Positions 6,874 through 64,000 of a stretch of DNA of 64,000 bases are shown in pieces. The position numbers and the translations under genes were made by a program. The notes below the pieces were generated by a model. It was not told the origin of the DNA. It saw only the letters and a program-made list of their open reading frames with translations, and made no database searches. Source of the stretch: Euglena gracilis (Eukaryota). The stretch is taken from positions 15,085,805-15,149,804 of the forward strand of contig CP154954.1 in the NCBI GenBank assembly GCA_039621445.1, in the 5' to 3' direction. Within the stretch, counting starts at the first letter, position 1; each line of letters starts with the position of its first letter.

Positions 6874-21553
<14,680 letters not shown>

Positions 21554-29581: not shown

Positions 29582-29707
29582 TGGTCCGGGAACCAAAAGC
29601 AACAAAAAAAGTAGCTTTGATGAGCTGTAGAAAAAAAACAAGGGATAAATGAATTGGGGTTGGGAGAAAAACACAGAGAGGGGAGGGAAAAGGCCTATAG
29701 GCCGATT

Positions 29708-32800: not shown

Positions 32801-33049
32801 ATCGCAAGCGTAAACAGGGTTCTCCAAAACACCAGAAAATTCGCGACTGATGCGCGTACAAAATTCTGTTGATTTGGGGTGCTGTCCTGCACTTTGAATG
32901 ACAGCGGAAACCTGTTTATGGGTCATATCAACCACAAGGGGGACAGAACGGTGATGCCTATCGGCATTATGGACAAAAGCCGTATCGGCTCCCACATGGT
33001 CGGTATGATCCAACACACTAACATTCAGGGGTGGAGATTGAGAAACATT

Positions 33050-33460: not shown

Positions 33461-34486
33461 AAAGTGAAAAGCATTCCAGGTATCCTTGGTGTACTTGTAG
33501 ATCTGCTCAACATCCTGAAGGGGGGGAACACGCTGTAACACAGAACAACGGAATTGTGAATCATCGACACAAATGTCCATAGGACTGGTTCCAGGGGGGT
33601 CATGGGTTGGTTGGGCATATACCCAGTCATCGGTGATGCGCGATAGCGCGGAATGCGCGATATGCGCGGGATTCGCACTATGTGCGTCAAGCGCGATATG
33701 CGCGGGGGTGTTGGAGAGCGCCATAGGCGCATGGGGAGCGCTATGCGCAAATCCGAAAAGGGAGGCTATGCCTTTGCACTGTAGTGCTTGATTCACATTC
33801 GCGAATTGCGAAAAGCTTCCAAGTGTATGTGTGGGATGTTAACAACTACTAAGTGTATTGTTGGGTGCACTACCCATTGTACCAAGGCCATGTACCTTTT
33901 GGTTATCTATTAAATCCGTACCGGTTGTACCACTACCAAGTACATAGGTACCACTACCAAGTGTAGGGGGGTAAAAGTTCCCGGTTGCGGGATCCAAACG
34001 GATTAGTTTGGAAGATTCAACTAGACACCCACAATCAAAATCATGGTAAGCGGAGATTCTCCGACAGTGAGCGCATTGGTAGGAGGGTTGATGCATGTGG
34101 TGCGCGTTTGTGTGGGTGTCAGTGCATAAGTTGGTGTCGGTTGGGGTAGCTGCTGGGGGGTGTACAGGGATGTCTGAAATCGACACACCTGGTGGAAAAC
34201 GAAAAAGTTGGGCAGCTGGGCGGCTACTCGACACCGTAATTACTTCAGGCCTTTGGGCTTTCGCCTGGGAACCCAGCGAAACGTGCGGGGTTAAGCTACT
34301 GGCTTTCCCTACCGCATGGGAAACGAGCGGTAAAAGTGCGGTGGGTAGGGGGGCAGCTTTCTCTTTACCCCTAGGGTAGGAAACGGTGTTTTCGGTTGTG
34401 GAAAACGTTGTGGAAATGCAGGGGGACATCCCGGGGGATGTCACGGGAGACAAGTTTGGGGGTGTGGTGTGTATGTGGGGGGTAGT

Positions 34487-34870
34487 TCACAAACCGTGCG
34501 AAGGACAATCCACCACCAATCGGTGTTGCCGTAGGAATGGAAAACCGAGTATGACATCAGAACCGGCGATATTCTTCTCGAATGCCCAAGTACCCAGAAC
34601 ATTTTGGAATTGTGGGGGGGGGTGCTTCGGGATAATGGGGAGGACTATGTCCAAAATGCATCCCAAGTCACCACCGCACATGGGGCTGTTGTCTGCAGTC
34701 ATCATTTTGATGAGATTCTTGGCATGAACCAAGAGGGGGGTGGGTATAAGTCCTTTGCGGAAAAGAAGGGGGATTCGACATCCTGTGTCGACTAAAATTT
34801 TGGCTTGTGCACAAAAATTTTGCGTTTTAATTTTCGCTTGGACCAAAAGTTCCATGGGGGGTAGGCAAAG
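34487..34870 (-). CDS. Aspartic protease of element A
   Basis: AKILVDTGC..IKMMTADN..DVILGFPFL. Confidence 0.9.
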   Translation of the reverse strand, partial: LCLPPMELLVQAKIKTQNFCAQAKILVDTGCRIPLLFRKGLIPTPLLVHAKNLIKMMTADNSPMCGGDLGCILDIVLPIIPKHPPPQFQNVLGTWAFEKNIAGSDVILGFPFLRQHRLVVDCPSHGL

Positions 34871-35134
34871 CGAATGGTCGGGTGTAAAATTGTTGTCGCA
34901 CCAACTGTTCCATGACCCTTTGCTTACTTTGCTCAACATTCCAAGCAAAAATTTGGCGCGGGGAGTGGGGGACCCGAAAATTTTCCGGGTACCAACCAAA
35001 AAGACCGATGGGCAGGGGGGCAGGGTTGATCAGTTCCTACCTCCATCTGTTCATATGCCCAGAGGTCCGTGCCCTCAGACCTCGGGATCCCCTACTGCAT
35101 ATCGAAGTCGGCCTTTTGGCCTATGGTTGGCTTC

Positions 35135-38100: not shown

Positions 38101-39308
38101 GAATCACCGCTCTACTGGGAAATGTGCTGTTGCGCTTCCTGAAATGCGGATGCAAGTGTGGAGAATTGCTCCAATGTGATAAATTGTCCCAAATCGGGAT
38201 TTTTGACGGAGATTTCATGCAACTTTTGCTGCAATTGTGGAAAAATTGCCGTAATTGGTTCCAATTGATGGGATAAAGCTTGCAAACTACGTTGCATGTT
38301 GGAGAAAATCGCATCATTGCGGGATTGTGTTTCACACATGGCTTAACTCACTTTTTGGAAGTGTTGTGGCAAATGTGCCTGCAAATGTGTGTCTAAACCT
38401 TGACGCAAAGTTGCTAGGTCCACATTGGTGGATTGAACATTTGTTCGGCAATATTCACCAACATCACGCACATAACTGCAAAGGTAATTCAGCTTGTGTT
38501 CTACAAACTTTTGGTTGTTTTCATCAAAATCCAAAACAGTGTTAAGTGTCATAGCGCAATCCGCTACACGGATTGAGTACACACTAAGTGTGGACATGGG
38601 AGATTTGCCGCGTTAGCGGGTGGTCCACTGGAAGATTTGCGACTATGCGCTGAATCACGGTAATGGGTTGAGGGGAAATATTTTTCAACTACTCCGCATC
38701 ACTGCTCATAGATTCTGTGGGACTTGCATAAGCCGGAACTGTCAAACGCATCTCCGGGTGCCATGGCAATGCCGGAAAAGAACCCGTATCGGGTGGTGCG
38801 GGCAATTGTCCAATCAGACTTGTGGGGGGAAGCATAGGTGGGGGCTGAAAGAAACATGGTGTTTCTAACCCACCCTCAACAAAAAGTTGCTGTGGCGTAT
38901 CCGCCTCAGAGTCAAATGTGCCTATCGGCACCAGTGCGAGATCTCGCCGTGGGAATGGGTGTTAGCCGATCGGCTTTCCAACAAAAGGGGTTGGGCCTGT
39001 TGGGCATGGGGTTGCTCTATAGAGCTGGAAACCAAAAGTGGTTGTGCCTGTTGGGCATGGGTTTGCTCTATAGAGCTTGACACCGATAAGTGTGGGGGTG
39101 CCCATCGGGCGGTGGGAGGATTATTCGACACAGACACCGATAGGTGTGACACACGCGGGGAAGGAGGATTACCTGCACAATGAGTCAATGCTTGAGTACC
39201 CCTATGGGGTTGAGAATCCTCATTGGAGCTAGTCAATGATGCCGCAGGTTCAAGTACTCGAAGTGATCCAATCAATGCAGCGTAGTCAATGGGAGTTGTG
39301 CTCTGCAT
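35135..39308 (-). pseudogene. gag: Very long gag of element A (coiled-coil N-terminus, capsid-like region, two CCHC knuckles); disrupted
   Basis: Begins MQSTTP; heptad-rich segments; WKQFFRDWEYYW; CFLCNQPGHMSREC and CSLCGSKDHHSSKC; RS-rich tail. Confidence 0.85.
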
Positions 39309-39540
39309 TTTTGAAGCAAAAACACAAAAACCAAGTGTAACTAGTGGGGTAAAATGCAGAAACAAGTGCAAAAAGATGGGATAGTATAAAAAGTAAGCAG
39401 AGACCCGAACTCTGAGGTTTGAAGCAGCGTATACTGCGAACCGTCAGAGGACGTGTCCGTGCGTACGGCTTTGGCCGGAAACGGCTTGTAGTGCCTGTGG
39501 TCGCCTATAGGCGGGGCACCACACGACCGTTTCCGGTCAA

Positions 39541-39567
39541 ATGGATCGAAAACCTAAACTGCTACCA
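39541..39567 (-). promoter_or_regulatory. Primer-binding site, initiator tRNA-Met type
   Basis: Minus strand TGGTAGCAGTTTAGGTTTTCGATCCAT directly after the 5' LTR. Confidence 0.85.
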
Positions 39568-40015
39568 AGTGTACGTCCAACCCTTTTCCTCGCTTTCGGC
39601 CTTTGGTGCGCAAGGTAAAAAGTTGGAGTAACAAAAGGGAAAAAAACTAAAATAATATAAAAGTTGTAAGCCCTTTTCCCCAATTAAGAGGCAGAGCACA
39701 AGGCAGGGGAGAAGCCCTATGGGCTACGACAATGCAAAGTACCAAGTGAATTGGCTGTCCTTTCAGGACTTCAAATGAAAACAAATCAAACTTGAAATTC
39801 AAGTAAGACAAAGTGAAAGAACAAAGTAGAAAATAGAAAATACCACCTGTGGAGAGGAGAACCAGAATAAGGATTAGGTATTCCTAATTCAGGCCGTTGG
39901 CCATCTTTAGGAATACCACCTAGCATAGTACTGTGTATGGGGCTCAGAGCTATATCTGGCCGTAGGCTTATACCTACATACACAGTACCATGGCCTTACG
40001 GCTGCCTGGTACACA
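39568..40015 (-). repeat. 5' LTR of element A
   Basis: Near-identical to 22620-23066. Confidence 0.95.
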
Positions 40016-43641: not shown

Positions 43642-43938
43642 TGTGTACCAGGCGTATGCTTCTGTCCACTTCCGTTAAGGAAGTTAGGATGGAAGCTGAT
43701 CCTTCTCTCTCCACAGGTGGTATTCTTATTCTTTTATATTCTTGTTCCTTCCTTTTCTCTGGACCGGACTTGGAAATCCAGTCCGTCCTCCCTGCATTGC
43801 TCTGTGCTCTGCTTCTTGGGAAGTGGGAAAAGGGTTTTTTCTGTTACTCTGATTTTCAGTTCCCAAGTAGGTGCGCCAAGGCGAAAGCGAAGGCTTTTTG
43901 TGAATTGGGAAAGGGAAATTGGGAATCAGACGTACACT
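43642..43938 (+). repeat. 5' LTR of element B
   Basis: TGTGTACCAGGC...GACGTACACT followed directly by TGGTAGCAG; same termini as element A LTRs. Confidence 0.8.
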
Positions 43939-44028
43939 TGGTAGCAGATTGGTTACGATCCTACACATACTTCACAGAAAGAAAGGCTACCAGGTATTAC
44001 ACTTGGTAGCAGATTGGTTCGATCCTAC
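43939..44028 (+). promoter_or_regulatory. Tandemly duplicated LTR-end/PBS
   Basis: TACACTTGGTAGCAGATTGGTT(A)CGATCCTAC occurs twice (~43933 and ~43998). Confidence 0.85.
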
Positions 44029-44216
44029 GCTGACTGGCAGCGCAGGGCCCCTGCACCGTTGTTACACGGTCGCAGCGTCAGCTCGCGGCTTCTAGTCAAC
44101 GTCTAAGCAGACGAGCAGGCTCCGGAAGGCTCTGTACGGATTACCCGTTACAGCCCCTCTGGTGCCAGCACATCTGCTTAGTTTTGTGGGTTTTTGCTGT
44201 TTTTGTCATCAGAAAG

Positions 44217-47200
44217 ATGCAAAGCACAGGCCCCAACCATCAATTCAACTATGCCTTATTACAGGCATCATTGCAAGACATTGACCAAGAAACTGGGGAC
44301 TGGAAGCTTTTATGTGAACGTGCTTCCAGTTCCCACGCCGATGAGGCACAATTGGTTCAATTGTCAAGATTGCAACATTTGTCATCATTGACAGTGGTCG
44401 GCGATGAGCCCTCCACTTCATTGGCTTCAGAGGCTAATGCGGCCTCTTCCGCAATCACCTTGCCACAACGGGGGTATTCGCCTCTGTCTGCGGCAATGGT
44501 GCAGCTGCGCACGCCGGAGAGACCCGTGGTGATTCCGCCACCGGGCTTCTCTGGTGATGGTGGGCTGGAAACCCCGTGTTTCTTTCAACCACCACCCGTT
44601 CTTCCACCGGCAAGCCCTTACAGAGCTTTGCCACCACCACCCGATCTTGGGTGCTATCCCGCATTACCTTGGCAGCCGGAGACTCGCCTAGTGGTACCAG
44701 AATTCTCTGGTACGTCCCAACCCATGGATGGCTATGGGAAGGGCACTGGGGAGCTCCTCACTGCTGAGGATGTGCAGGATATCGTTGCTCGGCTTCCAGG
44801 GGATCACCCCCTTGTGAGGCAGTTCAACCATGTGCAACAATGTGTTGCAGATTGTGCAACTGCACTGAACAAAGTGCTTCAGTTTGATGAGGACAACCAA
44901 AAACATGTCTTCACCAATCTGGAATACTGCTGGAATTACTTGCAGGAAGTTGGGAAATATTGCCAGAGGAATTTCGAAAGTGCGGGTATTGACCTTGCAA
45001 ACTTTCGGGAAACCTTTGACAAAATGTGCCAACAACTCCCGCAAAACTTCCGGCAAATAAGTGAATGCATGCATGAAGCGGAAACGCGGAATGACTCCAA
45101 GTTTCTGCACTTGCATGACTCACTACGGCAGTTATCGGGACAAATGCAGTCCTGTTCATCCGCGTTGTTGCATTTGCAACAACAGTTGCATGCACGAGAT
45201 TCCTCGTCTGCAACAACAAACAGTGGTGGATTTGTGTCTACGGACCATTTCATCACATTGTCCGCAACTTTTCATGAATCGAAACTCCGCATTATGCAGT
45301 TGTGCGATGAAACGGAAACGTTTCGGCAATTCCAGTCACAAGCTAATGAGAATTTTGCTCCCCACGCGTATGTGCGGCAGTTGGAGGAGCGACTTTCCCG
45401 TTTGGAGCAGAAAACCTGCTATTGTGATGCAAATCGGGTTCGACTATCCAATCTGAGCGCGAAAGTCGCGGAAGTAGCACAACGACAGGATTACTTGCAG
45501 TTGCAGTTGCAATCCGACATTGGCGGGATTAACTCGGCCATTGCGGGTTTGCAACAAAGCTATTCCGCACTTTCCCACCGAGTTTCGGACATTAGCGGTA
45601 TTCAAACTGCTATTGGAGAACTCCAGACCCGGTATGCATCTGTGTCTACCAAAGTAGCGGAAATGCAGTCTCTACCTGCAGCTTCCAGTTCCCGGATTAC
45701 AGAGAACCCTGATTTCAAGGCATTTTATGACAAAATGCTCACTGGCAATCAGGAAACCTTGCAAGATTTCTGCAACAGCCTATTACGGCTTGAGGAATCG
45801 GTGAATCGGAATTCCCGATCCACGCAAGGTGAGATTACCAGGTTGGATGAGCGAATTTCCGCGTTTCTGGATAAGCCACAACCCGGAAATTTGCCCGTAG
45901 GTACCACAACCGCGTTGTCGGATAACCCCGCACTGGTTGAACCCAACACCACACCAACCAAGGTGCAAACACCTTTGCAGATTCTCTCAAAAGCTGTAAA
46001 ATCATTAACGGGACAACTCCAATTATTGGATGAGTCTCACGGGAAACTTGTCCAAGATGTTACCGGAATTTCTGAAAGGATTCCGCATTTGGATGACTTT
46101 TCCCGTTACCGCAAGCGTATTCGCGCTTCGGAGGATGAGGTTAACCGTTTTTGCGGCCAACTCCAACTCGTTGAGCATTTGGAGCAAAGTGTGCATTACT
46201 TGTCTGTCGGTTTGGATAGTGTCCAACCAACAGCGGGTTTCACACCGCAATTCGGCAGTATGCATTGCCGAAGATGCGCCACATGTTCCAGATTCGCGTT
46301 TCCACAACCCGAATCCAGGTGCACACGCACCACCACCACCCGTGTCCCGAGTGTCACAATCCGCGATTCCGCGAATGGTGCCACCATTGGCCCTGTCCAC
46401 AACCCAAACCCAGTTTTCGGATGAACTTCCCATTACGGGAACCGAATTTTCGGAAAACACGGCGATTCTGCAAATGTCTCCATCAAGAAATACATCATTG
46501 CATGCTTGTGCGTGGAATGAGCCAAACCCGTACACCGGGAGTGGGTCACATGTTGCATGCGCGACATACCCCCACACCGGAGAGTCCCCCTATTACGGGT
46601 GACCAACAGGGTTTGCGACCGGATTTCCGGTACCAGGATTCACCTTCACCAGAAATTTCGCGATTCCGACAAGAATCCGGAAAGGATACGCTTTGTGCTC
46701 GAGCGTACCCAGGCACAAAACCGCGGAATACCACCGAGGGTCATTGGGTTTCTCAGAAAGACTTCAAGGGCACCATCGCAATCGCGAACAAGGTGAAACC
46801 CCAATGGGAAGGTGATCCAACCACATGGAGACAGTTTTTCCGGGACTGAGAGTACTACTGGGCATTGAAAGGGCCAACCCAGGACACAAACCCGGAGGTG
46901 ATCAAGATGTAATTCATCGATTGCCTCCCTAGGGATGAGAAGGAGCGCGCGCGACAACTTGTAATTCGCTACCGCGTTTCCTTTGATGACCTGGTGGAGC
47001 AATACGCTTCCACCAGTTCAAGTTTGGTCGCTGGGATTACTCTAGAGACCAAGTGGTGGCAATGCGCCTCCCCCGATCGCAATTGGAAGTCCATTGACCT
47101 TTGGTATGTCAAATGGTTAGGACTTGCCGCTGAAGTGGATGAACTCAGTGAAAAGCAAATGCGCGAACAGTTTGGCGCTTTTCTCATGCATTTTACGCCT

Positions 47201-48192
47201 AGCCTCATTAAGGATATCCATCGTGAGGAGTTGGCGAGTCATCCAATGACTCTTGGCCAACGCTGGAACTACGTTTTCAAGCAATTGAAGCTATCACAGC
47301 TTCTTGGTCAGATTCAATCCGTGTATAACGCACACCAAACCGCTGGATTACCGGCTGGTTCGGTGAACGCATTGCAAAAATCACCGGTTTCACCCACTTC
47401 ACCCACCACGGGATCGAAAACGTGATATCCGCGTTCTTCGGACCAAGCCACAGATAAAGTGTGCTTTTTGTGCAACAAATCGGGACATATGTCTCGGGAG
47501 TGTCCTAATCCTGAAGCGCGAAAGCGTATTCAGAGTCCGCGAGGCTCGACCTCATCACGAGGTTCGGGTTCTTCCGCATTTTAACGCCAATCGGGCAATT
47601 CACGGTCATCGGGTCCCCGTTCCGGTGGTATTAGCCCCCGGATCCCGTTCCGTGATGAGCGGAAACACGGTACCCCTCGGGGTAGGTCACCCGGTGCACC
47701 AGCCAAAAAGCGTGATTCTTATCCCGAGACACCGCGATCGCGTTCGCGACGCGGATCATCCTCTTCGCGATCCTCATCTGGAAAACCCCGATACACCGGT
47801 CATGGTCGACGGGATACCTGCTCACAACGACGGTTTGACGGGAAATCAGGAAACCGATCCCCCCGTTACCCAGAACGCGACACAAATCTCGGTGTTCGCT
47901 TTGTGGATCGAGTGATCACCACTCATACAAATGTCCGCGTTCTCGTTCTCCCCGCCCTGGCCATCGTCATCGCGGTATGAATCGCGGTGACAAGGGTCAA
48001 TCCTCCAACCGCCATAAAGTCGGTTTCAAGATATCTTGTTTGGAGGATGACACCCCGGCTTCGGGCAGGGAGGGGAATGAGACCACGGATACCGATTTCG
48101 ACGAGGCCCGCATGGCGGTGCGCACATTGAAATCCGTTTATACGTCTAATTGGCCCATAGCCGGCTATTCGGCCGGTTCGGACCTGGAGTAG
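44217..48192 (+). pseudogene. gag: Long gag of element B; disrupted
   Basis: MQSTGP.. long coiled-coil ORF to 46424; VSQKDFKGTIAIANKVKPQ; WRQFFRD*EYYW; CFLCNKSGHMSREC at ~47462; homologous to element A gag. Confidence 0.87.
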
Positions 48193-48419
48193 GGGAGCCC
48201 GAGGTCCGAGGGCACGGACCTCTGGGCTGATGAACAGATGGAGGTAGGACCTGATCAACCCTGCCCCCCCTGCCCATCTGCCTTTCTGGTCGGTACCCGG
48301 AAAATTTTCGGGTCCCCCACCCCCCACTCCAACTTTCCGCTCGGAATGTTGTGCAAAGTAGGAAAGGGTTCATGGGAAAGCTGGCAAGAAAACGTATTTT
48401 CGCCAGACCCTTCACTTTG

Positions 48420-48790: not shown

Positions 48791-49649
48791 GCCACTGTTT
48801 GCGCACACCACCATTCTCTTCATTGCCAAATTCTCTTCATCCCCAAATCTTCATCACCTGTGGCGTCAAACCGCGACGACCACCAATTTTTCAACACCGT
48901 TTTCAAAAACTTTTAACCCGTTACCAACCACACCAACCAACGTTTTACACACCGGGTGTACCGAGAAAGTTCACCCCCTGCCCACTGACACACCAACTTC
49001 CGTTCCCCATGAAGCAGGGCAGGCGAGTAGCGGTACCCCTCTCGTTCCACTGGGTTACAAGACGCAAGCCCAAAGGCCTGAAGTAATTACGGTGTCGAGT
49101 AGTCGCCCAGCTGCACCAACATCCCGTTTTCCACCAGATGTATCGCTTTCAGATACATATGTACACCCCCCAGCAGCTACAAAAGCGCATCCCAACTTTT
49201 ACACACATCCTCACCAGACCAACACGCGCGACCAGGACCACTACTCCAACACTTCCTTCCAATGTGTGCACTGTAGGAGAATTTCCGCCCAGCCAGATTT
49301 CGATTGTGGTTGTTTAGTCCAAACACCAACACTAATCCCGATTTCGCTCACCCATACACTTGGTTGCGGATCGCAATGCGCGACCGTACACCAAGTGCTC
49401 CAACAACGAGGTATTGCCTTGTTGTTTGGGTCCGCGAAATCCGTGTCACACACCTCCCCCACCTCCATCTGGCATGATATGGACTTGGTATGCACCCATC
49501 CAACCCATCAACCCTTGGGAATGCCCCTATGGAGTGTGGATGACACACCCTTGACCTATGTTTGTGGATCCCTGAATTGCGTTACCGCTCTTCAACCCGC
49601 GAACCAGGTGGACACCTACGCGATGCACGTGTGGAACGCATTTAATTTT

Positions 49650-50055
49650 GGTCAATACCGTATTTTGGAGGAATGGTTCTCCAAAATAGCTGTTTTGGCT
49701 GATTCTTTAGATTTGTCGTTGGAAATTGATGCGTTTTCATCAAAAGCGCATGCGCGCTTGTCGCGATATTGATCGCGACATTCCAACGCATTTCTTAAAT
49801 TTTGGGGTGATACGTTGCTATGGATGCACCCTCCCCCAAAACTTATCCCGGATGTGGTGGAGAATATCCTCCGCGATGAAGCGCGAGGAGCTCTCTTCAT
49901 ACCCGTCAATCCGAATGCAGATTGGTTTCACCAACTATCCTATGTGTGCTTTCATTGGTGGGATTTACCCGCTGATGTACCACTATTCGAGGATTTTTGT
50001 GGTATATTATTACCACCTGTTAAAGAAATCATTTTTCGTGTTTGTTTCTTTGACA
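49650..50055 (+). pseudogene. Dam-like N6-adenine methyltransferase domain of element B (one in-frame stop)
   Basis: QYRILEEWFSKIA..LEIDAFSSKAHARLSRY*SRHSNAFLKFWGDTLLWMHPPPKLIPDVVENILRDEARGALFIPVNPNADWFHQL..WWDLPADVPLF..LPP..FRVCFFD. Confidence 0.75.
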
Positions 50056-50303
50056 CATTCGGAATATCCGATTTGCGTGTGCCAAGATACCTTGGTACCA
50101 ATGGGGATGCCACACCCTCAACACAGATTTCCGCGGTCATTGAGAGTGCTGACCAACACCCCAAGTCAGCTGATTAGTGTTCGCGAATTACTCGCGAATT
50201 CCATGGTGTACTGGATAACCCAGTTTACGCCTGCGACATCGACCGCGCGATTCGCGGTCCGTTCGGTTTTTGCAAAATCGAGCTCAAGGGTGGAGCTAAA
50301 CCC

Positions 50304-52092: not shown

Positions 52093-52779
52093 TGTTCCCG
52101 CCCGTGGGCGCCCGAATTGTTTCAATTCAACGGCTTTCCGGCTTCTCGACCGCTGCGAGCGGCGAAAAAGCCGTGGAAAACGGCTGAAAAGCCGTGTTGA
52201 ACAGCGAAGATGCCGTTTCTCCGTGCCCTTTTGGCGGAAAAGCCGTTTGGCCGGCGGCACTGGCGCAAAAGGCGGCTTTTTTGTACTCCGTCGCGGAAAA
52301 CCGACAAGGAAGGAAGGGACACCGCGGGCGAAGCACAAAGGCCTTGGGAAACTGAGGCCCCCCCTTCTCTCTCCGCCGGCCCACGACGCAAAAAAAAACG
52401 CCCATTTTCTTTGCTGTGGCCTTTTTTTTAACATGGCTGGCTTTCCCCGTTTGTTTCGACAACATATTTGCCAACCCCTCAACTAACAAGGAAAAGCAAC
52501 TCTCATCGCAAAGTGTTCGTGACAAAGTGCGGGACAAAACTGTTCTGGAGTTCTGGGACAAAAGTGCGGGACATCTCAAAAGAAGGGTTGCTGTCACTGC
52601 TGTGCCTCCGCCACTTTGTTCTGCAACGAGTGCAGTATAAGCTCTTGAAAAGCAGAAGCGTATATCTGGCCGAATTGCACCATTTCTCGTTCAGCTGTCG
52701 GGCAGGGGAAAAAATTCCTCTACGAAAAAGAGGAGTCCAGAATGAGGCTCACAACCAGAACAAAACATGCATTGCACAC

Positions 52780-53092
52780 ATGGTGGCCATCATGGGGCAT
52801 GATGGCAGATGGCCATCCTGGGTTGTGATGGCCATCAAGGGTCATGATGGACATCAAGGGTCATGATGGCCATCACAGGTCATGATGGCCATCAGGGCCA
52901 TCAGGTGTCATCATGGCCATCATGGATATTGATGGGCATCAAGGGTCATGATGGCCATCATGGGTCATGATGGCCATATGGGTCAGGATGGCCATCATGG
53001 GTCATTATGGCCATCATGTCATGAATATGGGTCAGGATGGGCATCATGGATCTTGATGGCCATGGGTTGTGATGCACCTCATGACAACCATG
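52780..53092. repeat. Degenerate minisatellite built on palindromic GATGGCCATC units
   Basis: Repeated GGGTCATGATGGCCATC variants. Confidence 0.88.
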
Positions 53093-53235
53093 GACAGAAA
53101 AATGGCCCTAAAGTGCTAAGTGGGGGGCGAAAAAAACAAAAAAAGCAAATATCCCCAAACTGGAAAAACCAAATCCAACAGAAACTTTTTTTTTCAAGAG
53201 CTTTGATGGAAGGAATTGAACAAACTCTTTACAAT

Positions 53236-53584
53236 CAGGGGTTTTTTCAGACGGGGGGGGAGGGGATCGGCAGACACCCACCAACATGGCCAAAAATGCA
53301 TGAAATTGCACCTCTTTCAAAATTTTCGAGGCCAGAAAAGATATACTCACCAGCCCGTACCCCACCCCCCCAGTGGGGGGGGGGGCAGGGGGTCCAAGGG
53401 CCACCAAAATTGGCCAGAAATGCATGAAATTGCACCTCTTTCAAAATTTTCGAGGCCAGAAAAGATATACCCACCAGCCTGTACCCCACCCCCCAGTGGG
53501 GGGGGGGGCAGGGGGTCCAAGGGACCCACCCACCCCACCCCCTCCCCCCCGGGGAGGTCTCCAAGGCTTAAAAAAAAAACCCTG
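53236..53584. mobile_element. hAT-like MITE
   Basis: CAGGGGTTTTTT / AAAAAAACCCTG termini; TSD TTTACAAT / TTTCCAAT (7/8); internal ~120-bp tandem duplication. Confidence 0.8.
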
Positions 53585-53659
53585 TTTCCAATCTCCTGCG
53601 TTCATGGGGGAACCCATGGTCAGGGACCATAGGCCACTGTAGAACGGCTGGTTCAACAT

Positions 53660-53914
53660 CAGGCTTTTGCTCAAGGACCTGGGGGGGGGGGCTCATCTGC
53701 TGGACTCTGGAAAAAAAAATTGACTTGCTAGACCCCCCCCCTCCACCCGCCGGTCCGGGGGTCCCCGCAGCTGGAAAAAATTTTCCTGCGAGGTGGAAGT
53801 GAGGTTTTTAATCGGTCTTTGGCTGATTTTGTTCCAAAAATTCCCCAAATTGGACTAGCCGCAGTCCAGCCCCCCCCACTCCAGGGGTACTGCAATCCCT
53901 TAAGCAAAAGCCTG
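53660..53914. mobile_element. hAT-like MITE
   Basis: TIR CAGGCTTTTGCT / AGCAAAAGCCTG; TSD TTCAACAT / TTCAACAC (7/8). Confidence 0.85.
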
Positions 53915-56124
53915 TTCAACACGGAAGGTTGAAGTGCTTGTGCAGCGCAACTTCAGGCTCAACTTTTGCTCGGTCTTCCGAGCATTCAGGAGCCACAGTA
54001 CGGGACATTGAATGAATGCTGCACCCCCATCTCCGGCAGAAGTGCAACCACCGTTAGGGGATGAACCCCTGCCGACAGAGACATATGTCGCACCGGCTAC
54101 AACGGAGGTTCAACCTCCCGTAGCACCTGCGCCAGCGGTTGTGGAGGATCAACCTCCTCGACCGGATGTCGAAATGGAACTGGAGGAAGTACCCCCACGA
54201 CCACCGACACCGCGCAGGATCCCTGCCGTCCCGAGGACAATGGCAGAGTTTATGGGAGTGTCAGCGCCTGTGGAAGCACCGATTCCGGTGACGACCACAG
54301 CACCACGCCCCGTCGGGCAGGATGACCCTGCTCGGCGCAGGGCGGCTGAACAACCCCAGGAACGAGTGCCGACCCCTCGGAGCGTCATGCGCGATCCAGC
54401 GGTCATTATGCCCGCTTCGCCCAGACGGCAAACGTCTGCTCCGGCACCATCGGCTCCTGATACCAGGAGGAAGCCACAGGCGTCGCCTCCTGATTCCGGG
54501 AGTGCGAAGCCGAAAGGAGGCAAACCGGGTGCTGTACCCTTTAAACCCCCTGCCAAAGGCGATGATGGGAAACCACCACCGAAAGGTAGCGCTGGAGGTC
54601 AGACTGGCGGACAGTCGAAAGGCCCTACGACAATGCACGACTATTCGGCCGTTACATCGTCCGGGTACGGCAAGAGCAAACCGAAAGGTAAGGCTCATGG
54701 TCGACAGGCCCAATCTTCCGCCGGATCGACGGATGAGGAGCAGGATGAATCTTCTTCACCTCCCGTGTCTGCGGATGCCCATCTCTGGACTCAGGATATC
54801 CTGACCAGACTAGGCACCGTGGAAGAGAGGACGAAGAAACTGGCTGCTATTAGGCAGCAGAAAGGGTCACATAATCGATAGATTCAGCCCCTCTTCGTCC
54901 GAGGAGAACCTTTCCACTATGTCCCGGAACATACCTGGACATTCTGGAACAGGCGCTCACCCAGAGTACTTGCACAGTACTTTGGCGAGGATTGTGTGTT
55001 GGATTTCCAGCACGGCACGTCATTTGCCTGAACGTGCACCGTGTGCCACCATCTGCGGCACTACCAACCGCTTGTGCATGTGTGCAAGCGGCAGGTGCAA
55101 TCCACGACGTTCCATCACAGGGCATATGTGCCGAACTGTGTGGCGCTCGTATGTGGCGAGTGCCTGAACGCCTGGAAGCACAGCTTGAACTACTCCTACA
55201 GTGAGAATGCTCACGACAGGGATATCCCTGCCTTGTGCATCAACTGTACAGGGGCCAAGTTCGTGCAGACTGCTGATGGAGCAGTCACCACCATTGTCCC
55301 CCAGCACTTGGAGACACTGGAGAAGTGGAAGAAGGAGTACAAGCAGGTGGAAGGCCGCCTGAACCACTCCGACTTCCGAAAGGTAGAAAGCTACCGCCAC
55401 ACGGGAATGGCCCGTGAGTTCCAGACAAACGCTGGGGCAATGCGCCTCGCCGTCGAGGAACACGCCAAGGTAAGAATGCCTTACCTCTGGACCGATGGCG
55501 ACTGGGAGACACAGGTTTACCCCCTGTTCTCCAAGCGTCAGCACGGCGGATACGCCTTGCCACTGTGGCCTCCTGAAGAACACGATTTAGTGGACTTCAG
55601 AGGTTGGTTGGCGGCTGTATTACGGCCCCATACTGCAAGAGCTCGGACAGCGAAGTGGATGTATGACATCAACTTCAAGCAGACCCCGGGGATGCCCCCG
55701 CAGGTGTCTGCGAATCACCCCCGGATGAATTACATCATCTGGCCGGTGATGCTGCCCAGAATTTTCTGGGAACAGCTCCAACGGTACCTTCAGCACATTG
55801 CTGACCGTACCAGGGAGAAGCTGCCGGACAGTTGGATCAAGGACTGGGAGACCCCATCCTTTGATGTCAAAGATCCGGAGCACAACACCATCCGGAGCGA
55901 ATCAGCTCCGCAGCGTTCCCCACGCCAACTGGAGTTGGTTGAGGACCCATTAGGGGACCCTCAACACGACTATTGGCGTGAGGTGCGCGAACGCCCAGCC
56001 GATAAAGGCAGGTGAGGTGGCTGTAAGCGCCAATGCGGCGTCTTTCAGAAACCTCGTCAGGTATTTGCCTGACACCCTGTTCGGGTATTTGCCCGAACAC
56101 CCCTTCGAAGACCCTTTGCGGTAT

Positions 56125-56925
56125 ATATTATATACCGCCCGAAAGGCAATGGTAGAGCCGAGGCAGCCGTGTCCGTTGTCAATATGCTTCGCCTTTCAGT
56201 GGCTGACTCGGGTAAGAATTGGTTATAGGTTCTTCATTGGTGTTAATTTTATATCAATACGTTGCCAGGGTTGGTATTAGCACACTCACCGTACAAAATT
56301 GTTTTCGGACGAGACCCTCCGGGCATAGCGGATATCCCCTCGGAGAGACCCGACCGAAGTAGTGTCAGCTGTGAAACGTGGTTTGCAGAAGTGGAATCAC
56401 TCCGCTCTGCAGTCCAATCACGTGTCACAGAAATTCATTCCAATAAACGGAAATCTTTTTTACAAAACTTCAACACACCCGTGTATAGTCCAGGTCACCG
56501 CGTGTGGGTACGGAATAACCGCACCCGCATGCAATCTTCCAAGCTAGATCATCTTTGGCTCGGCCCATGCGAATTTTTGGAGAGATTAGGTAGTATCGGG
56601 CGATATAAAGTTGCCTTGCCCAACGGGATTGAGGACGTCCATATGGACGACTTCAAACCGTACCTAAGCCCCCCAGACGGAAAGGCTATCACCTGCCTAT
56701 ATTTCAAGCCCCGTTCCAGATTACCTGAAACGGACGACTTTGTGGTCGATAAGATAATAGAGCACAAGGTCGACAGGGGTGTGCACTACTGGAAAGTTCG
56801 CTGGAAAGGGTATGGGCCAGAGAGGACACTTGGGAGCCAGCATCCAGTTTTGTTGGACATATCCAGCAGTATTGGAAGCTGTGGAACAAGCGCAATAACA
56901 TAGACAAAAACATAAACACTTTCTG
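56125..56925 (+). pseudogene. Integrase C-terminal part + chromodomain (copy 1)
   Basis: IYRPKGNGRAEA..HSPYKIVFGRDPP..WLGPCE..VHMDDFKPY..FVVDKIIEHKVDRGVHYWKVRWKGYGPE. Confidence 0.9.
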
Positions 56926-57117
56926 AAACGATTTCGTTTCGGAGAATGTGTGTGTTTTATGTGAATGTTTCGCGTTTATACCCACCCCTGCACTCATCTT
57001 CTGTCTTTCTCACAGAGTTTTTGATTAAGATAGAAGCCTTCTTTTTTCAGTGCACCAGCACTCAAAGCTACTGACAAAAAGGTTTCCCTTCGTTGCAGTC
57101 GTCGTTCGGGTAGCATC

Positions 57118-60100
57118 ATGCTGCCTGGGCGCGGACCTGGACCAGGTCCACCATGGCCGCAGCCTCCTGGCGCGCCATACCCCCAGTACCCTCAGTATGC
57201 TGAGGCCCCGATTCCGGGTGCCCCACACGCTGAGAGGGTTTCAGCCCCGGTATTCGCCGCGGCTACCAGCAGCCGGTCCGCATATGCGGCACCAGATCCA
57301 TCTGCCGTCAAGCAGCCGGCACCCCAGCCACCAGTGCAGCGCAGATTGCGCCTGCCCCCGTATGCGGGAGAGATGATCTTCCGCACTACGGAGACTTTGG
57401 AGCGGGCGATGTGTATGTGCGCACACCCCCCAACGGATCCCTTTATGAAAGCCCTTTGGGATGCATACTGTGCTCAGTTGTTGGTGGTAGCCAACACGCC
57501 TGTGGCTCAGTGGTGTCCCTGTGGTCAAGCCCTGATGACGGGAGACGGTATTTCTCGTGGGCATCCGATTCCGGATTCAAGCCTGGCGAGACAATGATGG
57601 ACCTTGGCGTGTATGTGCCGCCCATGCTGCAAACGCAGAGGACGGTGGGATGCCACACCGTGCATATTTGTGAGCACACGCCCCCACGGGTAGGTGAGGC
57701 TGTGCATGTCCCACCTGGGATGACGAGAATTTTTGCTCGCCCGCCCTCGCCGCAGCGAATGCCGCCGCGCGAGCCGCCAGCGGAGCAATTTGTCTCGCAG
57801 TACGCGACGCACGCGGATTACCCGCGCGGCGCACGCGTGCTCCCAGCCGGACAGTCGGACGTGCCCCCTGAGGCATACGTCCAACACATGTTCGTGCACT
57901 GGATGCCACAGGCATCACCGGTCGCCCCTGCCCCTGGCGTTGAGCCACGGCGGCAGGTGGAGTCCATAGTGGTGGAGGATGAACCTCCCCACAGTGTGGC
58001 AGCCTGACCGCCCAGTGCACCTCCTGTCCAGACCGGGGATATCCCCCGTCGGCAGGAGGCTCCCCACTACCACATGGCACCTCCGGGAACCGAGCAGGAT
58101 GAGCTTGCTCGGCACTTCCTGCAGGAGCCAGTATTCGCGTCTGAAGAGCACCGGACGAGGTATTACGCCTCTCTGGCTGCCCTTCAGGGATACACCCCCT
58201 ACCATCCGTACCAGCCGCAGCTGCGGGTGGCAACCCCGGTTTTACCCGGTGAGCCCCCGGCAGGTGTGGCAGTATTACCTGCCACCCTGAAGCGCGACAG
58301 GGCTACGGAGAACCTTACCCCACAGCCCAGGCGACCCAGCCCACGGGGCGCGGAAGGCGGTGTGGCGAGGCAGGTGGAAGCCAGCCAGGATACCCCGACT
58401 GGACGACCACCGGCAGAGGCACAGGTGGCGATGAGCCGTCCTGTTGCCGCAATGCCACCGCCGATCCCTCCGGTATGGAAGGAGCCGCGACCCCCTGCGT
58501 CGAAGCCAAGCCCACGCCAGGCTCCTAGCCAACGCCCAGCCACGCCATCACCGCGACGTGCAGCGGATCGGCAAGATCCCTCCCCAGAGATGGAATGGGA
58601 AGGAACCGAACCGACTGCGGCACCGAGCGCCTGACCCTCTGGTATTCGCCAGATGGGGAAGGACACTGGCAAGGCTGAGGGCAAAGGCAAAGGAGAAGGC
58701 AAAGGCGTTTGCCGGCAAAGGTAAGGGTGAGGGCAAAGGTGAGGGTAAAGGTAAGGGTACAGGACGTGAGGAGGAAGAACAACCAGCGGAAGTCCTCTCG
58801 GACTTTGAGCAAATGCTCAGGTTCAAGGAGGAGCTGGAGGACGAAGGCTGGCGAATGCAGCATGATTACCATGTTGCAGGAAACCGCCCCGTCACCCCTC
58901 CACAAGCTGTCATCGATGTGGTATTACACCACACTGAGAACAGAGTCAGACAATTCCATTACGGAATTGATCTGTACGCCTTCGAAGGTGAAGGTGGCAG
59001 ACCCTTGCTGGATGCCCAGCCAGGTTTGTGGGAGCTCTGGTTTTGGCTGGGATACCCCTGCCAGAACTGGGGTCTCTTCAGCGATTCCACTGGTCGCAGT
59101 TACCTGCACCAGTTAGGATTCCGGGACCAGCATGTGTTGGCCCGGAGGCTGAAGGCCTACTTCGAATGTATTCACTCGGTAGGACCCCTCAGAGTCCAGT
59201 GGAAATACTACCCCCTGAACCCCGACATCGAACGCCTGATCGAGGTGTTGTGGTGCAACAACATCCAGGTTTGCTGGTGAGCCATTACGGCTCCACCTTC
59301 CGCGTTAAGCGTGTTTCCCTGGCTTACCCACAGAGGTATGACCTCTGTAGTAAGTACTGCGGGCAGGAACTTCCTGTCGACTTCTGGGGATTCGGCGTCC
59401 GCGGAAGTCCTCCACCGCCTCGTGATAACCCGGGCCTGAAGATGGGACGCCGCATGCTTATGCATGTGTGCCGCGACGCCCCGGATCTCCAGGGCAAAAG
59501 TCACCGCGTCCGCAAGCAGCGTGTTTTTATGCTGCACCAGTTCTGGTGGCGAGCCTGGACCACCTACGTCATGGAGGTGTATGTACATCTCCGTGACCCC
59601 CAGGACGACAGGCCTGGTATGGAAAGCTTGCCACCGGATTACGGCGATCCCATTGAGGGTCCTCGTCGTCGTCGGGTCATCGCATCGCCGACCTGCGCCG
59701 CAACTGGCACCTGGCTGATATCAGCCTGGACACTTGCGGCGACAGTTCGGCGGTACCCTCGACCCGGAGGTATTCCTCCAGTTGATGATGCACCCGAAGG
59801 CCGTCCTCGACCTGCGTATGCCGATTCTGGCATGCGTTCAGGAGTTAAAGGATGGCTTTTTCGAGGTCTGGACGGATACGCGTTACCTCGGATTCCTGGG
59901 CCCGAACAGGCCTGCCAACGCCTGGGTGCAGCCATCATGGCCGCCACCCTGGCCCAACAGCGCCAGCAGCAGTACGCTGGCCTTTTACAGGCTGCCGGAT
60001 ACTCAGGGATGCCGATGGCATCCCGACGATCCTCGTTCGCCCGAGGATCTGCGTGCCTTCATCGCCCCGGAGGATGAACCTCTGGCGCGAAGGAGACGTG

Positions 60101-62637
60101 AGGCGTCAGTCGCTTCCACCACCGCGATTCCGCGGCGGGAGGAACGCGAACGCAGCCCCTCCGTCACAATTCTGGAGGCAGCGCCGCCGTCTCCGACAGG
60201 AACGGCTGTATCCTTGGTCTCTGCCCCGCGAGCGGCAGGGGAACGATCAGTTTCCCCGGCCCCCGCGGCAGCTCCCGTCTGTCCACCGGTAGGTGGGGAC
60301 GAGGAACTCCCTCAGGAAGGCGAGAACGTGAAGGATATCCTCTACGCTGCTCTACCTGCACCGGCACAGCCTCGGCCAGACGAAGCACCCACAGAGGATA
60401 TACCTGTGACAGCAACGCCTGTCCCGACGGCTGAGCCTCAACCCGAGGTGACTGGTATGGTCGTCGACGATATCCTCGAAGAACCTACCAGCCCCGCAGC
60501 ACGCACCTCATTAGGAGGCCGCGTGCTCGGCGCCGTAGTCACCGGCATTACTGCCGTGGCTGCTGCACTAACGCCACGAGGTGGAGGCGTAGCATCAAGC
60601 TCCGCCGCTGAGGTCGTGGAGATGCCGGATGTCGGCGTCCCTGCACCCCCATCCCCGGCAGAAGTGCAACCACCGTTAGGGGATGAACCCCTGCCGACAG
60701 AGACATCTGTCGCACCGGCTACAACGGAGGTTCAACCTCCCGTAGCACCTGCGCCAGCGGTTGTGGAGGATCAACCTCCTCGACCGGATGTCGAAATGGA
60801 AGTGGAGGAGATACCCCCACGACCACCGACACCGCGCAGGATCCCTGCCGTCCCGAGGACAATGGCAGAGTTTATGGGAGTGTCAGCGCCTGTGGAAGCA
60901 CCGATTCCGGTGACGACCACAGCACCACGCCCCGTCGGGCAGGATGACCCTGCTCGGCGCAGGGCGGCTGAACAACCCCAGGAACGAGTGCCGACCCCTC
61001 GTAGCGTCATGCGCGATCCAGCGGTCATTATGCCCGCTTCGCCCAGACGGCAAACGTCTGCTCCGGCACCATCGGCTCCTGATACCAGGAGTAAGCTACA
61101 GGCGTCGCCTCCTGATTCCGGGAGTGCGAAGCCGAAAGGAGGCAAACCGGGTGCTGCACCCTGTAAACCCCCTGCCAAAGGCGGTGATGGGAAACCACCA
61201 CCGAAAGGTAGCGCTGGAGGTCAGACTGGCGGACAGTCGAAAGGCCCTACGACAATGCACGACTATTCGGCCGTTACATCGTCCGGGTACGGCAAGAGCA
61301 AACCGAAAGGTAAGGCTCATGGTCGACAGGCCCAATCTTCCGCCGGATCGACGGATGAGGAGCAGGATGAACCTTCTTCACCTCCCGTGTCTGCGGATGC
61401 CCAGCTCTGGACTCAGGATATCCTGACCAGACTAGGCACCGTGGAAGAGAGGACGAAGAAACTGGCTGCTATTAGGCACCAGAAAGGGTCACATAATCGA
61501 TGGATTCAGCCCCTCTTCGTCCGAGGAGACCCTTTCCACTATGTCCCGGAACATACCTGGACATTCTGGAACAGGCGCTCACCCAGAGTACTGGCACAGT
61601 ACTTTGGCGAGGATTGTGTGTTGGATTTCCAGCACGGCACGTCCTTTGCCTGGACGTGCACCGTGTGCCACCATCTGCGGCACTACCAACCGCTTGTGCA
61701 TGTGTGCAAGCGGCAGGTGCAATCCACGACGTTCCATCACAGGGCATATGTGCCGAACTGTGTGGCGCTCGTATGTGGTGAGTGCCTGAAAGCCTGGAAG
61801 CACAGCTTGAACTACTCCTACAGTGAGAATGCTCACGACAGGGATATACCTGCCTTGTGCATCAACTGTACAGGGGCCAAGTTCGTGCAGACTGCTGATG
61901 GAGCAGTCACCACCATTGTCCCCCAGCACTTGGAGACACTGGAGAAGTGGAAGAAGGAGTACAAGCAGGTGGAAGGCCGCCTGAACCACTCCGACTTCCG
62001 AAAGGTAGAAAGCTACCGCCACACGGGAATGGCCCGTGAGTTCCATACAAACGCTGGGGCAATGCGCCTCGCCGTCGAGGAACACGCCAAGGTAAGAATG
62101 CCTTACCTCTGGACCGATGGCGACTGGGAGACACAGGTTTACCCCCTGTTCTCCAAGCGTCAGCACGGCGGATACGCCTTGCCACTGTGGCCTCCTGAAG
62201 AACACGATTTAGTGGACTTCAGAGGTTGGTTGGCGGCTGTATTACGGCCCCATACTGCAAGAGCTCGGACAGCGAAGTGGATGTATGACATCAACTTCAA
62301 GCAGACCCCGGGGATGCCTCCGCAGGTGTCTGCGAATCACCCCCGGATGAATTACATCATCTGGCCGGTGATGCTGCCCAGAATTTTCTGGGAACAGCTC
62401 CAACGGTACCTTCAGCACATTGCTGACCGTACCAGGGAGAAGCTGCCGGACAGTTGGATCAAGGACTGGGAGACCCCATCCTTTGATGTCAAAGATCCGG
62501 AGCACAACACCATCCGGAGCGAATCAGCTCCGCAGCGTTCCCCACGCCAACTGGAGTTGGTTGAGGACCCATTAGGGGACCCTCAACACGACTATTGGCG
62601 TGAGGTGCGCGAACGCCCAGCCGATAAAGGCAGGTGA
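57118..62637 (+). pseudogene. ORF3 region of element B (several frameshifts; last 967-codon segment 59734-62637 open)
   Basis: Pro-rich N-terminus, AQWCPCGQALMTG block, Trp-rich middle domain, Pro/Ala linker and C-terminal Cys-rich domain; collinear with element A ORF3. Confidence 0.82.
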
Positions 62638-62749
62638 GGTGGCTGTAAGCGCCAATGCGGCGTCTTTCAGAAACCTCGTCAGGTATTTGCCTGACACCCT
62701 GTTCGGGTATTTGCCCGAACACCCCTTCGAAGACCCTTTGCGGTATATA

Positions 62750-63552
62750 TATTATATACCGCCCGAAAGGCAATGGTAGAGCCGAGGCAGCCGTGAAATC
62801 CGTTGTCAATATGCTTCGCCTTTCACTGGCTGACTCGGGTAAGAATTGGTTATCCGTTCTTCATTGGTGTTTATTTTACATCAATACGTTGCCAGGGTTG
62901 GTATTAGCACACTCACCGTACAAAATTGTTTTCGGACGAGACCCTCCGGCCATAAGGGATATCCCCTCGGAGAGACCCGCCCGAAGTAGTGTCAGCTGTG
63001 AAACGTGGTTTGCAGAAGTGGAATCACTCCGCCCTGCAGTCCAATCACGTGTCACAGAAATTCATTCCAACAAACGGAAATCGTTTTTACAAAACTTCAA
63101 CACACCCGTGTATAGTCCAGGTGACCGCGTGTGGGTACGGAATAGCCGCACCCGCATGCAATCTTCCAAGCTAGATCCTCTTTGGCTCGGCCCATGCGAA
63201 ATTTTGGAGAGATTAGGTAGTATCGGGCGATATAAAGTTGCCTTGCCCAACGGGATTTAGGACGTCCATATGGACGACTTCAAACCGTACCTAAGCCCCC
63301 CAGACGGAAAGACTATCACCTGCCTATATTTTAAGCCCCGTTCCAGATTACCTGAAACGGACGACTTTGTGGTCGATAAGATAATAGAGCACAAGGTCGA
63401 CAGGGGTGTGCACTACTGGAAAGTTTGCTGGAAAGGGTATGGGCCAGAGAGGACACTTGGGAGCCAGCATCCAGTTTTGTTGGACATATCCAGCAGTATT
63501 GGAAGCTGTGGAACAAGCGCAATAACATAGACATAAACATAAACACTTTCTG
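62750..63552 (+). pseudogene. Integrase C-terminal part + chromodomain (copy 2)
   Basis: IIYRPKGNGRAEAAVKSVVNMLR..DPLWLGPCEIL.. one stop ..HYWKVCWKGYGPE. Confidence 0.9.
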
Positions 63553-64000
63553 AAACGATTTCGTTTCGGAGAATGTGTGTGTTTTATGTGAATGTTTCGC
63601 GTTTATACCCCCCCCTGCACTCATCTTCTGTCTTTCTCACAGAGTTTTTGATTAGACAGAAGCCTTCTTTTTTCAGTGCACCAGCACTCAAAGCTACTGA
63701 CAAAAAGGTTTCCCTTCGCTGCAGTCGTCGTTCGGGTAGCATCATGCTGCCTGGGCGCGGACCTGGACCAGGTCCACCATGGCCGCAGCCTCCTGGCGCT
63801 CCATACCCCCAGTACCCTCAGTATGCTGAGGCCCCGATTCCGGGTGCCCCACATGCTGAGAGTGTTTCAGCCCCGGTATTCGCCGCGGCTACCAGCAGCC
63901 GGTCCGCATATGCGTCACCAGATCCATCTGCCGTCCAGCAGCTGGCACCCCAGCCACCAGTGCAGCGCAGATTGCGCCTGCCCCCGTATGCGGGAGAGAT

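Follow-up and report, generated by a model that had tools for sequence, protein, structure and literature searches.

Downstream of the chromodomain of a retrotransposon in Euglena gracilis lies a 5.5-kb region of coding character, and the question it raises is whether it is a gene belonging to the element, and if so one gene or two, or sequence acquired from elsewhere. The region occupies positions 57118-62637 (plus strand) of a 64,000-nucleotide (nt) stretch of contig CP154954.1 (GenBank assembly GCA_039621445.1, positions 15,085,805 to 15,149,804), referred to here as the window. By self-comparison of the window and frame-wise tblastn we defined a pair of long terminal repeat (LTR) retrotransposons, E1 and E2, both of which carry the region. 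It would represent open reading frame 3 (ORF3), a third gene of a chromodomain Ty3/gypsy lineage in E. gracilis or a close relative. Between about a fifth and a third of the 2.4-Gb E. gracilis genome consists of LTR elements (PMC11252322), and the gene content of Euglena LTR elements has barely been described.

A shared coding region downstream of pol

In E1, ORF3 runs from an ATG at 57118 to a TGA at 62635-62637 (5,520 nt, 1,840 codons) and begins about 215 nt 3' of the pol stop. The E2 copy lies on the minus strand from 29581 to 23900 (ATG at 29581-29579, TAG at 23902-23900; 5,682 nt), between the chromodomain and the polypurine tract and 3' LTR, inside a single LTR pair. At 5.5 kb, ORF3 exceeds the length of the protease-reverse transcriptase-integrase region of the element.

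A preliminary description of the locus had stated that the two elements share a set of conserved blocks on the sense strand, arranged in one common order. Comparison of the E2 frames against E1 by tblastn bore this out, with identical position and block order in E1 and E2. Block i (57256-57546, plus strand; W..YC.Q.L..AN.P.AQWC.CGQ.LMTG) showed 38% identity over 97 amino acids (aa) with an expect value (E) of 1e-15. Block ii (58804-59642, plus strand, in two segments, 58804-59277 and 59355-59642; LYAFEG..WFW.GYP.QN..CIHSVGP..VDFWGFGVR..H.CR..QFW.RAWT) showed 37-38% identity (E 2e-42), and block iii (61441-62328, plus strand) 42% over 302 aa (E 5e-83). A C-terminal block iv (62332-62610, plus strand; PGMPPQ..ANHPR.N..IWP..LPR.FW) was 44% identical (E 6e-22). 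Together, blocks iii and iv (61441-62610, plus strand) comprise an N.W leader, an AQYFG motif, a Cys/His cluster and a helical region, followed by the block iv motif.

Two basic Gly-Lys tracts stand ahead of blocks ii and iii. The one before block ii, at 58680-58790 (plus strand) in E1, has an equivalent in E2, and an environmental relative, P0016, is rich in Arg-Gly and Lys-Gly at the same position. The start M..PGRGPGP is common to both copies, and the N terminus of ORF3 (MLPGRGPGPGPPWPQPP...) is rich in Pro and Gly. Reading both copies also confirmed that the linkers between the blocks are Pro/Ala-rich and differ between E1 and E2; the E1 linker ahead of block iii contains 17% Pro and 14% Ala, and the linkers are probably disordered. 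Amino-acid identity between E1 and E2 is 31-44% for the ORF3 blocks, compared to 68-77% for reverse transcriptase, 71% for protease, 60% for the integrase C terminus and 29-55% for gag (tblastn), while the reverse transcriptase nucleotide identity is only ∼75%. The blocks shared at the same place in two elements so far apart support the earlier proposal that a conserved accessory coding sequence forms part of the element, and we consider it very probable that ORF3 is a single, integral gene of this lineage.

The elements that carry ORF3

E2 is a whole LTR retrotransposon (22620-40015, minus strand) with ORF3 wholly inside. Its LTRs (40015-39568 and 23066-22620, minus strand) are 448 bp long and 97.5% identical, and the element is flanked by a 5-bp target duplication, CCGCC, at 40020-40016 and 22619-22615. 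The primer binding site starts at 39567 (TGGTAGCAG...), immediately after the 5' LTR, and the polypurine tract GGGAGGGGGA (23076-23067) abuts the 3' LTR. E1 lies on the plus strand and extends past the window end, with its 3' end beyond the window. Its 5' LTR (43642-43938, plus strand; 297 bp) starts with TGTGTACCAGGC and ends with ACGTACACT, as in E2, and here too the primer binding site adjoins the LTR, from 43939 (TGGTAGCAGATTGG...; LTR and site together 43642-43960, plus strand). The LTR end and primer binding site of E1 (CACTTGGTAGCAGATTGGTT.CGATCC, 43935-43965) recur about 65 nt downstream, at 44000-44030.

Above the Pfam cutoffs we obtained zf-CCHC (33 bits, the gag zinc knuckle), RVT_1 (83.8 bits), RT_RNaseH_2 (79.2 bits) and, for the zinc-binding N terminus of integrase, Integrase_H2C2 (30.8 bits against a cutoff of 25.5). 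The integrase C terminus matched SH3_Tf2-1 at 28-29.7 bits, slightly under the cutoff of 30. The DDE core gave no Pfam match in the broken frames; it is readable by eye in E2, and part of it is missing in E1. The E2 chromodomain (29983-29711, minus strand) scored 45 bits with Chromo (cutoff 25.1), and the E1 chromodomain copies, each split by a frame change, scored 19-21 bits. The E1 integrase C-terminal part and chromodomain (56127-56903, plus strand) lie directly upstream of ORF3 and are repeated at 62733-63530. Given the gag knuckle, reverse transcriptase, RNase H, integrase zinc domain and E2 chromodomain, E1 and E2 are chromoviruses, that is, chromodomain Ty3/gypsy LTR retrotransposons. 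The region before the protease is unusually long in both (∼3.8 kb; 38961-35135, minus strand, in E2 and 44556-48135, plus strand, in E1) and is conserved; it includes two CCHC knuckles and a stretch resembling a coiled coil (Pfam NPV_P10, 30.6 bits).

E1 has been rearranged. Self-comparison revealed a tandem duplication in which 54019-57374 equals 60641-64000 at 98.2% identity, with a unit of 6,622 bp consisting of the integrase C terminus, the chromodomain and ORF3. The window contains at least 2.5 units of this array, which continues past the window end. A partial copy of the ORF3 C-terminal part lies at 54019-56015 (plus strand), and a third ORF3 start at 63744-64000 (plus strand) is cut at the window end. 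Compared to 60641-62637, the partial copy carries 24 substitutions, 8 synonymous and 16 non-synonymous, with two stops among the latter; the divergence of ORF3 after the duplication looks like neutral decay. The E1 ORF3 stop at 62637 is joined within ∼100 nt to mid-integrase, with no 3' LTR there, and the order chromodomain, ORF3, polypurine tract and LTR is therefore demonstrated by E2 alone. Upstream, the E1 integrase breaks off at ∼52172 and is followed by ∼1.85 kb of unrelated sequence (52172-54019). This insert contains internal repeats (53253-53400 equals 53378-53523 at 91%), and at 53800-53914 many RNA reads match only partly and have loose ends.

Probably one gene rather than two

Neither copy of ORF3 is intact. 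The E1 copy has four frame changes (∼57540, 58435-58631, ∼59277-59298 and 59719-60074) and one in-frame TGA (58005-58007), and its last 972 codons (59719-62634) are open; the E2 copy has three frame changes and four in-frame stops. gag and pol are broken too, in E1 and in E2, and both window copies are dead. We take the disruptions of ORF3 as defects and not as gene boundaries because the E1 frame change at ∼59277-59298 cuts the conserved block ii, because an E2 in-frame stop takes the place of a conserved residue in PGIPPQV*CNHPR, and because pol and gag are broken as well. In addition, all four reads of the RNA run X20 at this point have one extra base behind 57539, the exact point of the first E1 frame change, which is thus specific to that copy. 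The length from ATG to stop is divisible by three in both decayed copies (5,520 and 5,682 nt) despite their four and three frame changes, a coincidence expected by chance in about 1 case in 9.

The preliminary description had reported a frame change just ahead of the Gly-Lys tract in both copies and had suggested from it that the region could be two genes. The frame changes themselves were seen, within 58435-58631 in E1 and within 27537-27455 in E2, and under this explanation an ORF3 with block i and an ORF4 with blocks ii-iv would be split just before the tract. The +1 shift found ∼80-200 nt ahead of the tract in both copies speaks for such a split, as does the lack of block i in P0016. At the proposed boundary, however, neither an ATG-led start nor an acceptor-like motif was seen. 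Since the two copies carry 5 and 7 disruptions in their 5.5 kb, we estimate that frame changes would coincide in a low-complexity linker in about 1 case in 3 by chance, so that the near-coincidence is likely in any case, and the first E1 frame change is copy-specific by the RNA reads.

The strongest argument for one gene comes from P0016, an environmental protein of 2,294 aa whose single frame, open from the Pro-rich N terminus through block iv, includes the Arg-Gly/Lys-Gly tract and block ii, joined by a Pro/Lys linker to blocks iii-iv. Block ii matches P0016 at E 1e-4 to 7e-7. After blocks iii-iv, P0016 has an extra C-terminal extension of 640 aa with no counterpart in E1 or E2. ORF3 is accordingly, on these comparisons, better read as one gene, and we did not favor the suggestion of two, which we consider improbable.

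Relatives of ORF3 and its origin

Blocks iii-iv, used as the query of a full HMMER scan across 1.84 billion representative proteins, returned 15 relatives. The nearest are two Euglena gracilis transcripts (EukProt), each 94% identical, one to E1 and one to E2, and at this identity they are other copies of the same elements. Two Logan proteins are 46-55% identical across the aligning stretches, and are taken here to be additional copies that have diverged more. The remaining relatives are environmental proteins with 22-37% identity; P0016 is a cluster mate of one HMMER match, P0012. By these matches the blocks iii-iv module extends beyond E. gracilis or its near relative. No genomic locus of the distant relatives was confirmed in two metagenome scans. 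In an index of sequencing runs, 16 rows from 11 studies, one of them a leaf-litter metatranscriptome, held 0.05-0.39 of the words of the window; we did not use these as evidence.

No known family was recovered. Nine ORF3 pieces gave no Pfam family at E up to 1, apart from an EBNA2 match to one piece at E 0.18 that we regard as chance, and P0016 gave none either. Among 14 block iii members, a Pfam search at E up to 10 returned eight families with one member each and a best E of 0.022. A sequence search of the PDB gave one chance row with P0016 (E 0.49) and none with the profile of alignment A1. The ESM Atlas had no usable match for block ii and only leads for block iii (0.78-0.82). Searching block by block, as the preliminary description had proposed, hence succeeded in finding relatives for blocks iii-iv and yielded no known family or fold, and as far as these searches reach the ORF3 family appears undescribed.

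ORF3 could also descend from a host gene that the ancestor of the lineage captured once and that has since traveled as cargo, contributing nothing to the life cycle of the element. Retroelement domains are not visible in the environmental relatives P0002-P0016, the extra 640-aa C-terminal region of P0016 is absent from E1 and E2, and ORF3 evolves much faster than pol, all of which would suit such an origin. Against it, gag diverges as fast as ORF3, and the gene, its start and an acceptor-like motif have been kept across elements that are 25% diverged in their reverse transcriptase nucleotides. Moreover, the sole named relatives are the 94%-identical transcripts, i.e., other copies of the same elements, and no named host family matches the ORF3 pieces or P0016 in Pfam. 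We think a captured host gene unlikely to be the right explanation. A separate transposon nested at the same place in both elements, for which one could cite the tandem duplication and foreign 1.85-kb insert near ORF3 in E1, is highly implausible, since no direct or inverted repeats of at least 150 bp flank ORF3, no transposase, reverse transcriptase or integrase signature lies within it, the same pol-stop junction and leader occur in two diverged elements, and the E2 copy sits within one LTR pair with one target duplication; the region is borne by the element, as first described.

Predicted properties of the ORF3 protein

An AlphaFold2 model of blocks iii-iv, built from a 14-row alignment, was moderately confident (mean predicted local distance difference test [pLDDT] 68.6, predicted template modeling score 0.69); in it, a small Cys/His module rich in beta structure precedes a helical domain. 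Blocks iii-iv therefore, as modeled, probably form a folded domain. Searched as a whole with Foldseek, the model had no match at E up to 0.001 among 257 rows from the PDB and 462 from BFVD. In an exhaustive VIA-align search of 48,161 chains the highest Z was 4.5, which is at noise level, with none at 5 or above and most rows spanning residues 169-291 only. Five retroviral capsid entries appeared at Z 2.4-3.1, far too low to mean anything for helical bundles, and a capsid likeness was discarded. The blocks iii-iv model searched as a whole thus matches no known fold, and we do not claim a new one. The block ii model was unusable (mean pLDDT 35.8, 4-row alignment).

In alignment A1 the Cys/His cluster follows the pattern CxxCH..HxC..NCxAxxCxxC..CxNC, with the spacing CxxC(H)-x10-13-HxC, a gap of ∼17-25 residues, and CxxxxCxxC-x(∼20-30)-CxxC. 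By this pattern the cluster would be able to hold two zinc ions. The C3HC4 RING consensus has two to three residues between ligands 4 and 5, and the spacing of the cluster does not suit a RING cross-brace, the long ligand gap of ∼17-25 residues fitting two successive sites better. Several weak signals do point toward RING-like proteins and are treated as leads only: a zf_RING-like Pfam match in 1 of the 14 block iii members (E 1.8), ESM Atlas clusters for RING, C1 and Rubicon-homology domains at 0.78-0.80, under the 0.9 level, and the baculovirus RING proteins PE38 and IE2 from Foldseek (E 0.35-2.2, with the whole iii-iv model as the query).

The preliminary description had seen no signal peptide or transmembrane helix, and our analysis agrees. 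The Pro/Gly-rich N terminus holds no signal peptide, and by Kyte-Doolittle hydropathy there is no clear membrane helix, the top 19-residue mean being 1.6 in E1 and 1.09 in P0016. Because it has neither a signal peptide nor a convincing membrane helix, the ORF3 product is predicted to be soluble and not env-like. That it is an env-like membrane glycoprotein gene as in errantiviruses or Athila, an idea to which its place downstream of pol behind an acceptor-like site and the weakly hydrophobic conserved E1 stretch GGRVLGAVVTGITAVAAAL (mean 1.6) might lend some appeal, is scarcely credible, as the N terminus is not a signal peptide, the same stretch drops to 1.36 in E2, P0016 nowhere exceeds 1.09 and no Pfam env family was matched.

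Leader and possible expression route

ORF3 is a frame separate from pol, with stops in between. Ahead of its start, E1 has a putative 3' splice or trans-splice acceptor at 57036-57072 (plus strand), with a pyrimidine tract, a CAG ending at 57050 and the 11-mer TCAAAGCTACT at 57062-57072. The putative E2 acceptor (29610-29640, minus strand) has a pyrimidine tract and CTACAG, with the AG at 29626-29625, and the same 11-mer at 29620-29610. The distance from CAG to ATG is 68 nt in E1 and 44 nt in E2, and the 11-mer is exact in both. It occurs three times in the 64 kb, always at an ORF3 leader, with an expected count of 0 (100 shuffles). From these motifs, the leader resembles a 3' splice site. In Euglenozoa a capped spliced leader (SL) is commonly trans-spliced onto nuclear pre-mRNAs (PMC2920757). 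Given this and the acceptor-like leader, an ORF3 mRNA could arise either by cis-splicing from the 5' leader or by SL trans-splicing. Expression through the acceptor is possible, at somewhat under even odds.

Weighing the proposed explanation

Taken together, we propose that an intact ORF3 would be one frame of ∼1,850-2,300 codons, placed downstream of the chromodomain end of pol and ahead of the polypurine tract and the 3' LTR. Its protein would be a soluble, lineage-specific scaffold in which three or four folded modules, among them a Cys/His module, are combined with disordered Pro/Ala/Gln linkers and with two basic Gly-Lys/Arg tracts. It would be translated from a subgenomic mRNA, cis-spliced or SL trans-spliced at the pyrimidine tract and CAG located 44-68 nt before the ATG, and would serve the element in its own life cycle as an adaptor that binds nucleic acid or protein, for example in genomic RNA handling or chromatin targeting. 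To this explanation as a whole, covering the identity of ORF3, its expression route and its adaptor role, we assign a probability of about 0.6. The adaptor function itself is tentative, with the odds clearly against it; it is suggested by analogy with CERV of the Cer1 element or the accessory proteins of complex retroviruses, and ORF3 occupies the place at which regulatory genes sit in complex retroelements. A chromatin- or silencing-related role is possible, while the anti-silencing function and nuclear localization that were first suggested have no support beyond the basic Gly-Lys/Arg tracts. More speculatively, euglenid chromoviruses might be "complex," with a giant (1,850-2,300 aa), mostly disordered, zinc-binding protein whose mRNA is SL trans-spliced at an internal acceptor and which is needed for RNA handling or chromatin targeting, a picture that we regard as rather unlikely. 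We know of no retroelement that uses SL trans-splicing of genomic RNA as a route to a subgenomic mRNA.

Several observations weigh against the explanation proposed here. The one-gene reading leans on P0016, which is known as a protein only, and the window has no intact copy. Block i had no detectable counterpart in P0016 and was found only in E1 and E2; for block ii, word-index searches with E2 at near lengths, residues 600-920 of P0016 at shorter lengths and alignment A5 found no relatives besides E1, E2 and P0016. The function has been read from composition and position alone, no fold or family match indicates nucleic-acid binding, and zinc binding is putative. The RNA data add further points. 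Only X20 of the four RNA runs covers ORF3, and the other three have almost no ORF3 reads, so that the expression check proposed in the preliminary description succeeded in one run and gave next to nothing in the rest. X20 contributes 446 reads spread over all 30 E1 bins, ORF3 among them, with a depth of ∼0.2-3.7 per first-mate strand, and this coverage speaks for the explanation. Just 12 of the 446 are at least 99% alike and most are 90-99% alike, from which we conclude that most derive from other element copies; the E1 and E2 loci themselves may be silent. First mates fall on both strands, and sense transcription is therefore unproven. Among the X20 joints and loose ends listed, none lies at 57015 or 57050, which at a depth of ∼2-4 neither supports nor refutes the acceptor. 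The scarcity of ORF3 reads agrees with the low LTR expression in E. gracilis remarked upon in a recent preprint (bioRxiv 10.64898/2026.05.21.726589).

Reads of X17, X18 and X21 form pile-ups at 48208-48266, 49351-49507 and 62795-62837 that match over 40-150 nt and then continue into unrelated sequence. Their source is probably transcribed sequence from other places that has a short segment in common with the element.

Other features of the window

Imperfect TG/CA-rich microsatellite arrays at 319-481, 10098-10363 and 19887-20533 match one another at 80-94%, and a separate degenerate tandem array lies at 12545-13184. Open frames at 9653-11321 (plus strand) contain leucine-rich-repeat-like motifs (LSKLPPGIAQLPVLNDLDL, LTRLDLAHNRF) and may be exons of a host gene.

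Comparison with known systems

In errantiviruses (Gypsy) and the plant Athila/Tat elements, an env-like ORF3 is found 3' of a splice acceptor in the interval from pol to the 3' LTR and encodes signal-peptide-bearing, transmembrane glycoproteins. The Euglena ORF3 resembles these in position but has neither the signal peptide nor the membrane anchor. Long regions between pol and the 3' LTR with additional ORFs have been described in plant Retand and other lineages (Mob DNA 2025, PMC11963269) and captured ORFs in LTR elements of bdelloid rotifers (Viruses 2017, PMC5408684). These elements are likewise reported to have long extra coding regions 3' of pol, whereas the hosts and proteins differ and the likeness is one of description only.

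The elements closest by host are the Euglena DAM-LTR and EpiLTR, chromodomain LTR elements with adenine and cytosine DNA methyltransferases (bioRxiv 10.64898/2026.05.21.726589). They share with E1 and E2 the host genus, a Ty3-like organization, the chromodomain and the acquisition of extra modules. Their extra modules are methyltransferases, though, and ORF3 matches neither type in Pfam. No DNMT family was found in the ORF3 pieces or in the scanned pol and gag pieces. A weak match to Dam, an N6-adenine methyltransferase family, lies between the protease and reverse transcriptase of E2 (residues 4-74 of the ORF 33397-32312; E 0.0013, 18.9 bits, below the cutoff of 28.1), and the equivalent in E1 (49773-50177) had no Pfam match at E up to 1. 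The E2 stretch (33397-33170, minus strand) has the motif WMHPP and may link the family to the published DAM-LTR elements. Neither the passages that a term search of the preprint returned nor its section 8 describe a long ORF 3' of the chromodomain; element architectures may be listed in the supplements. A full-text literature search found nothing else on Euglena chromoviruses.

The nearest functional parallel may be CERV, a protein of the Cer1 element of Caenorhabditis elegans that is made from a spliced mRNA and needed for export of the genomic RNA (PLoS Genet 2023, PMC10309623). CERV, like the predicted ORF3 protein, is not env, belongs to no known family and is extra to the gag and pol of an LTR retrotransposon. 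ORF3 is several times larger, the likeness would be functional and not one of sequence, and splicing and RNA export have been shown for CERV, while for ORF3 they are inferred.

An LTR retrotransposon with an extra ORF is a known kind of element, of which the one reported here appears to be an undescribed version. Being longer than pol, retained in elements that have diverged and without a match to any family or fold, this third gene would add a new accessory protein to those of retroelements, and it would offer a way into the question of how their downstream genes are expressed in a trans-splicing organism. Even if it were merely decaying cargo, ORF3 would still account for a sizeable share of the "unknown" coding-like sequence in E. 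gracilis and in environmental protist data.

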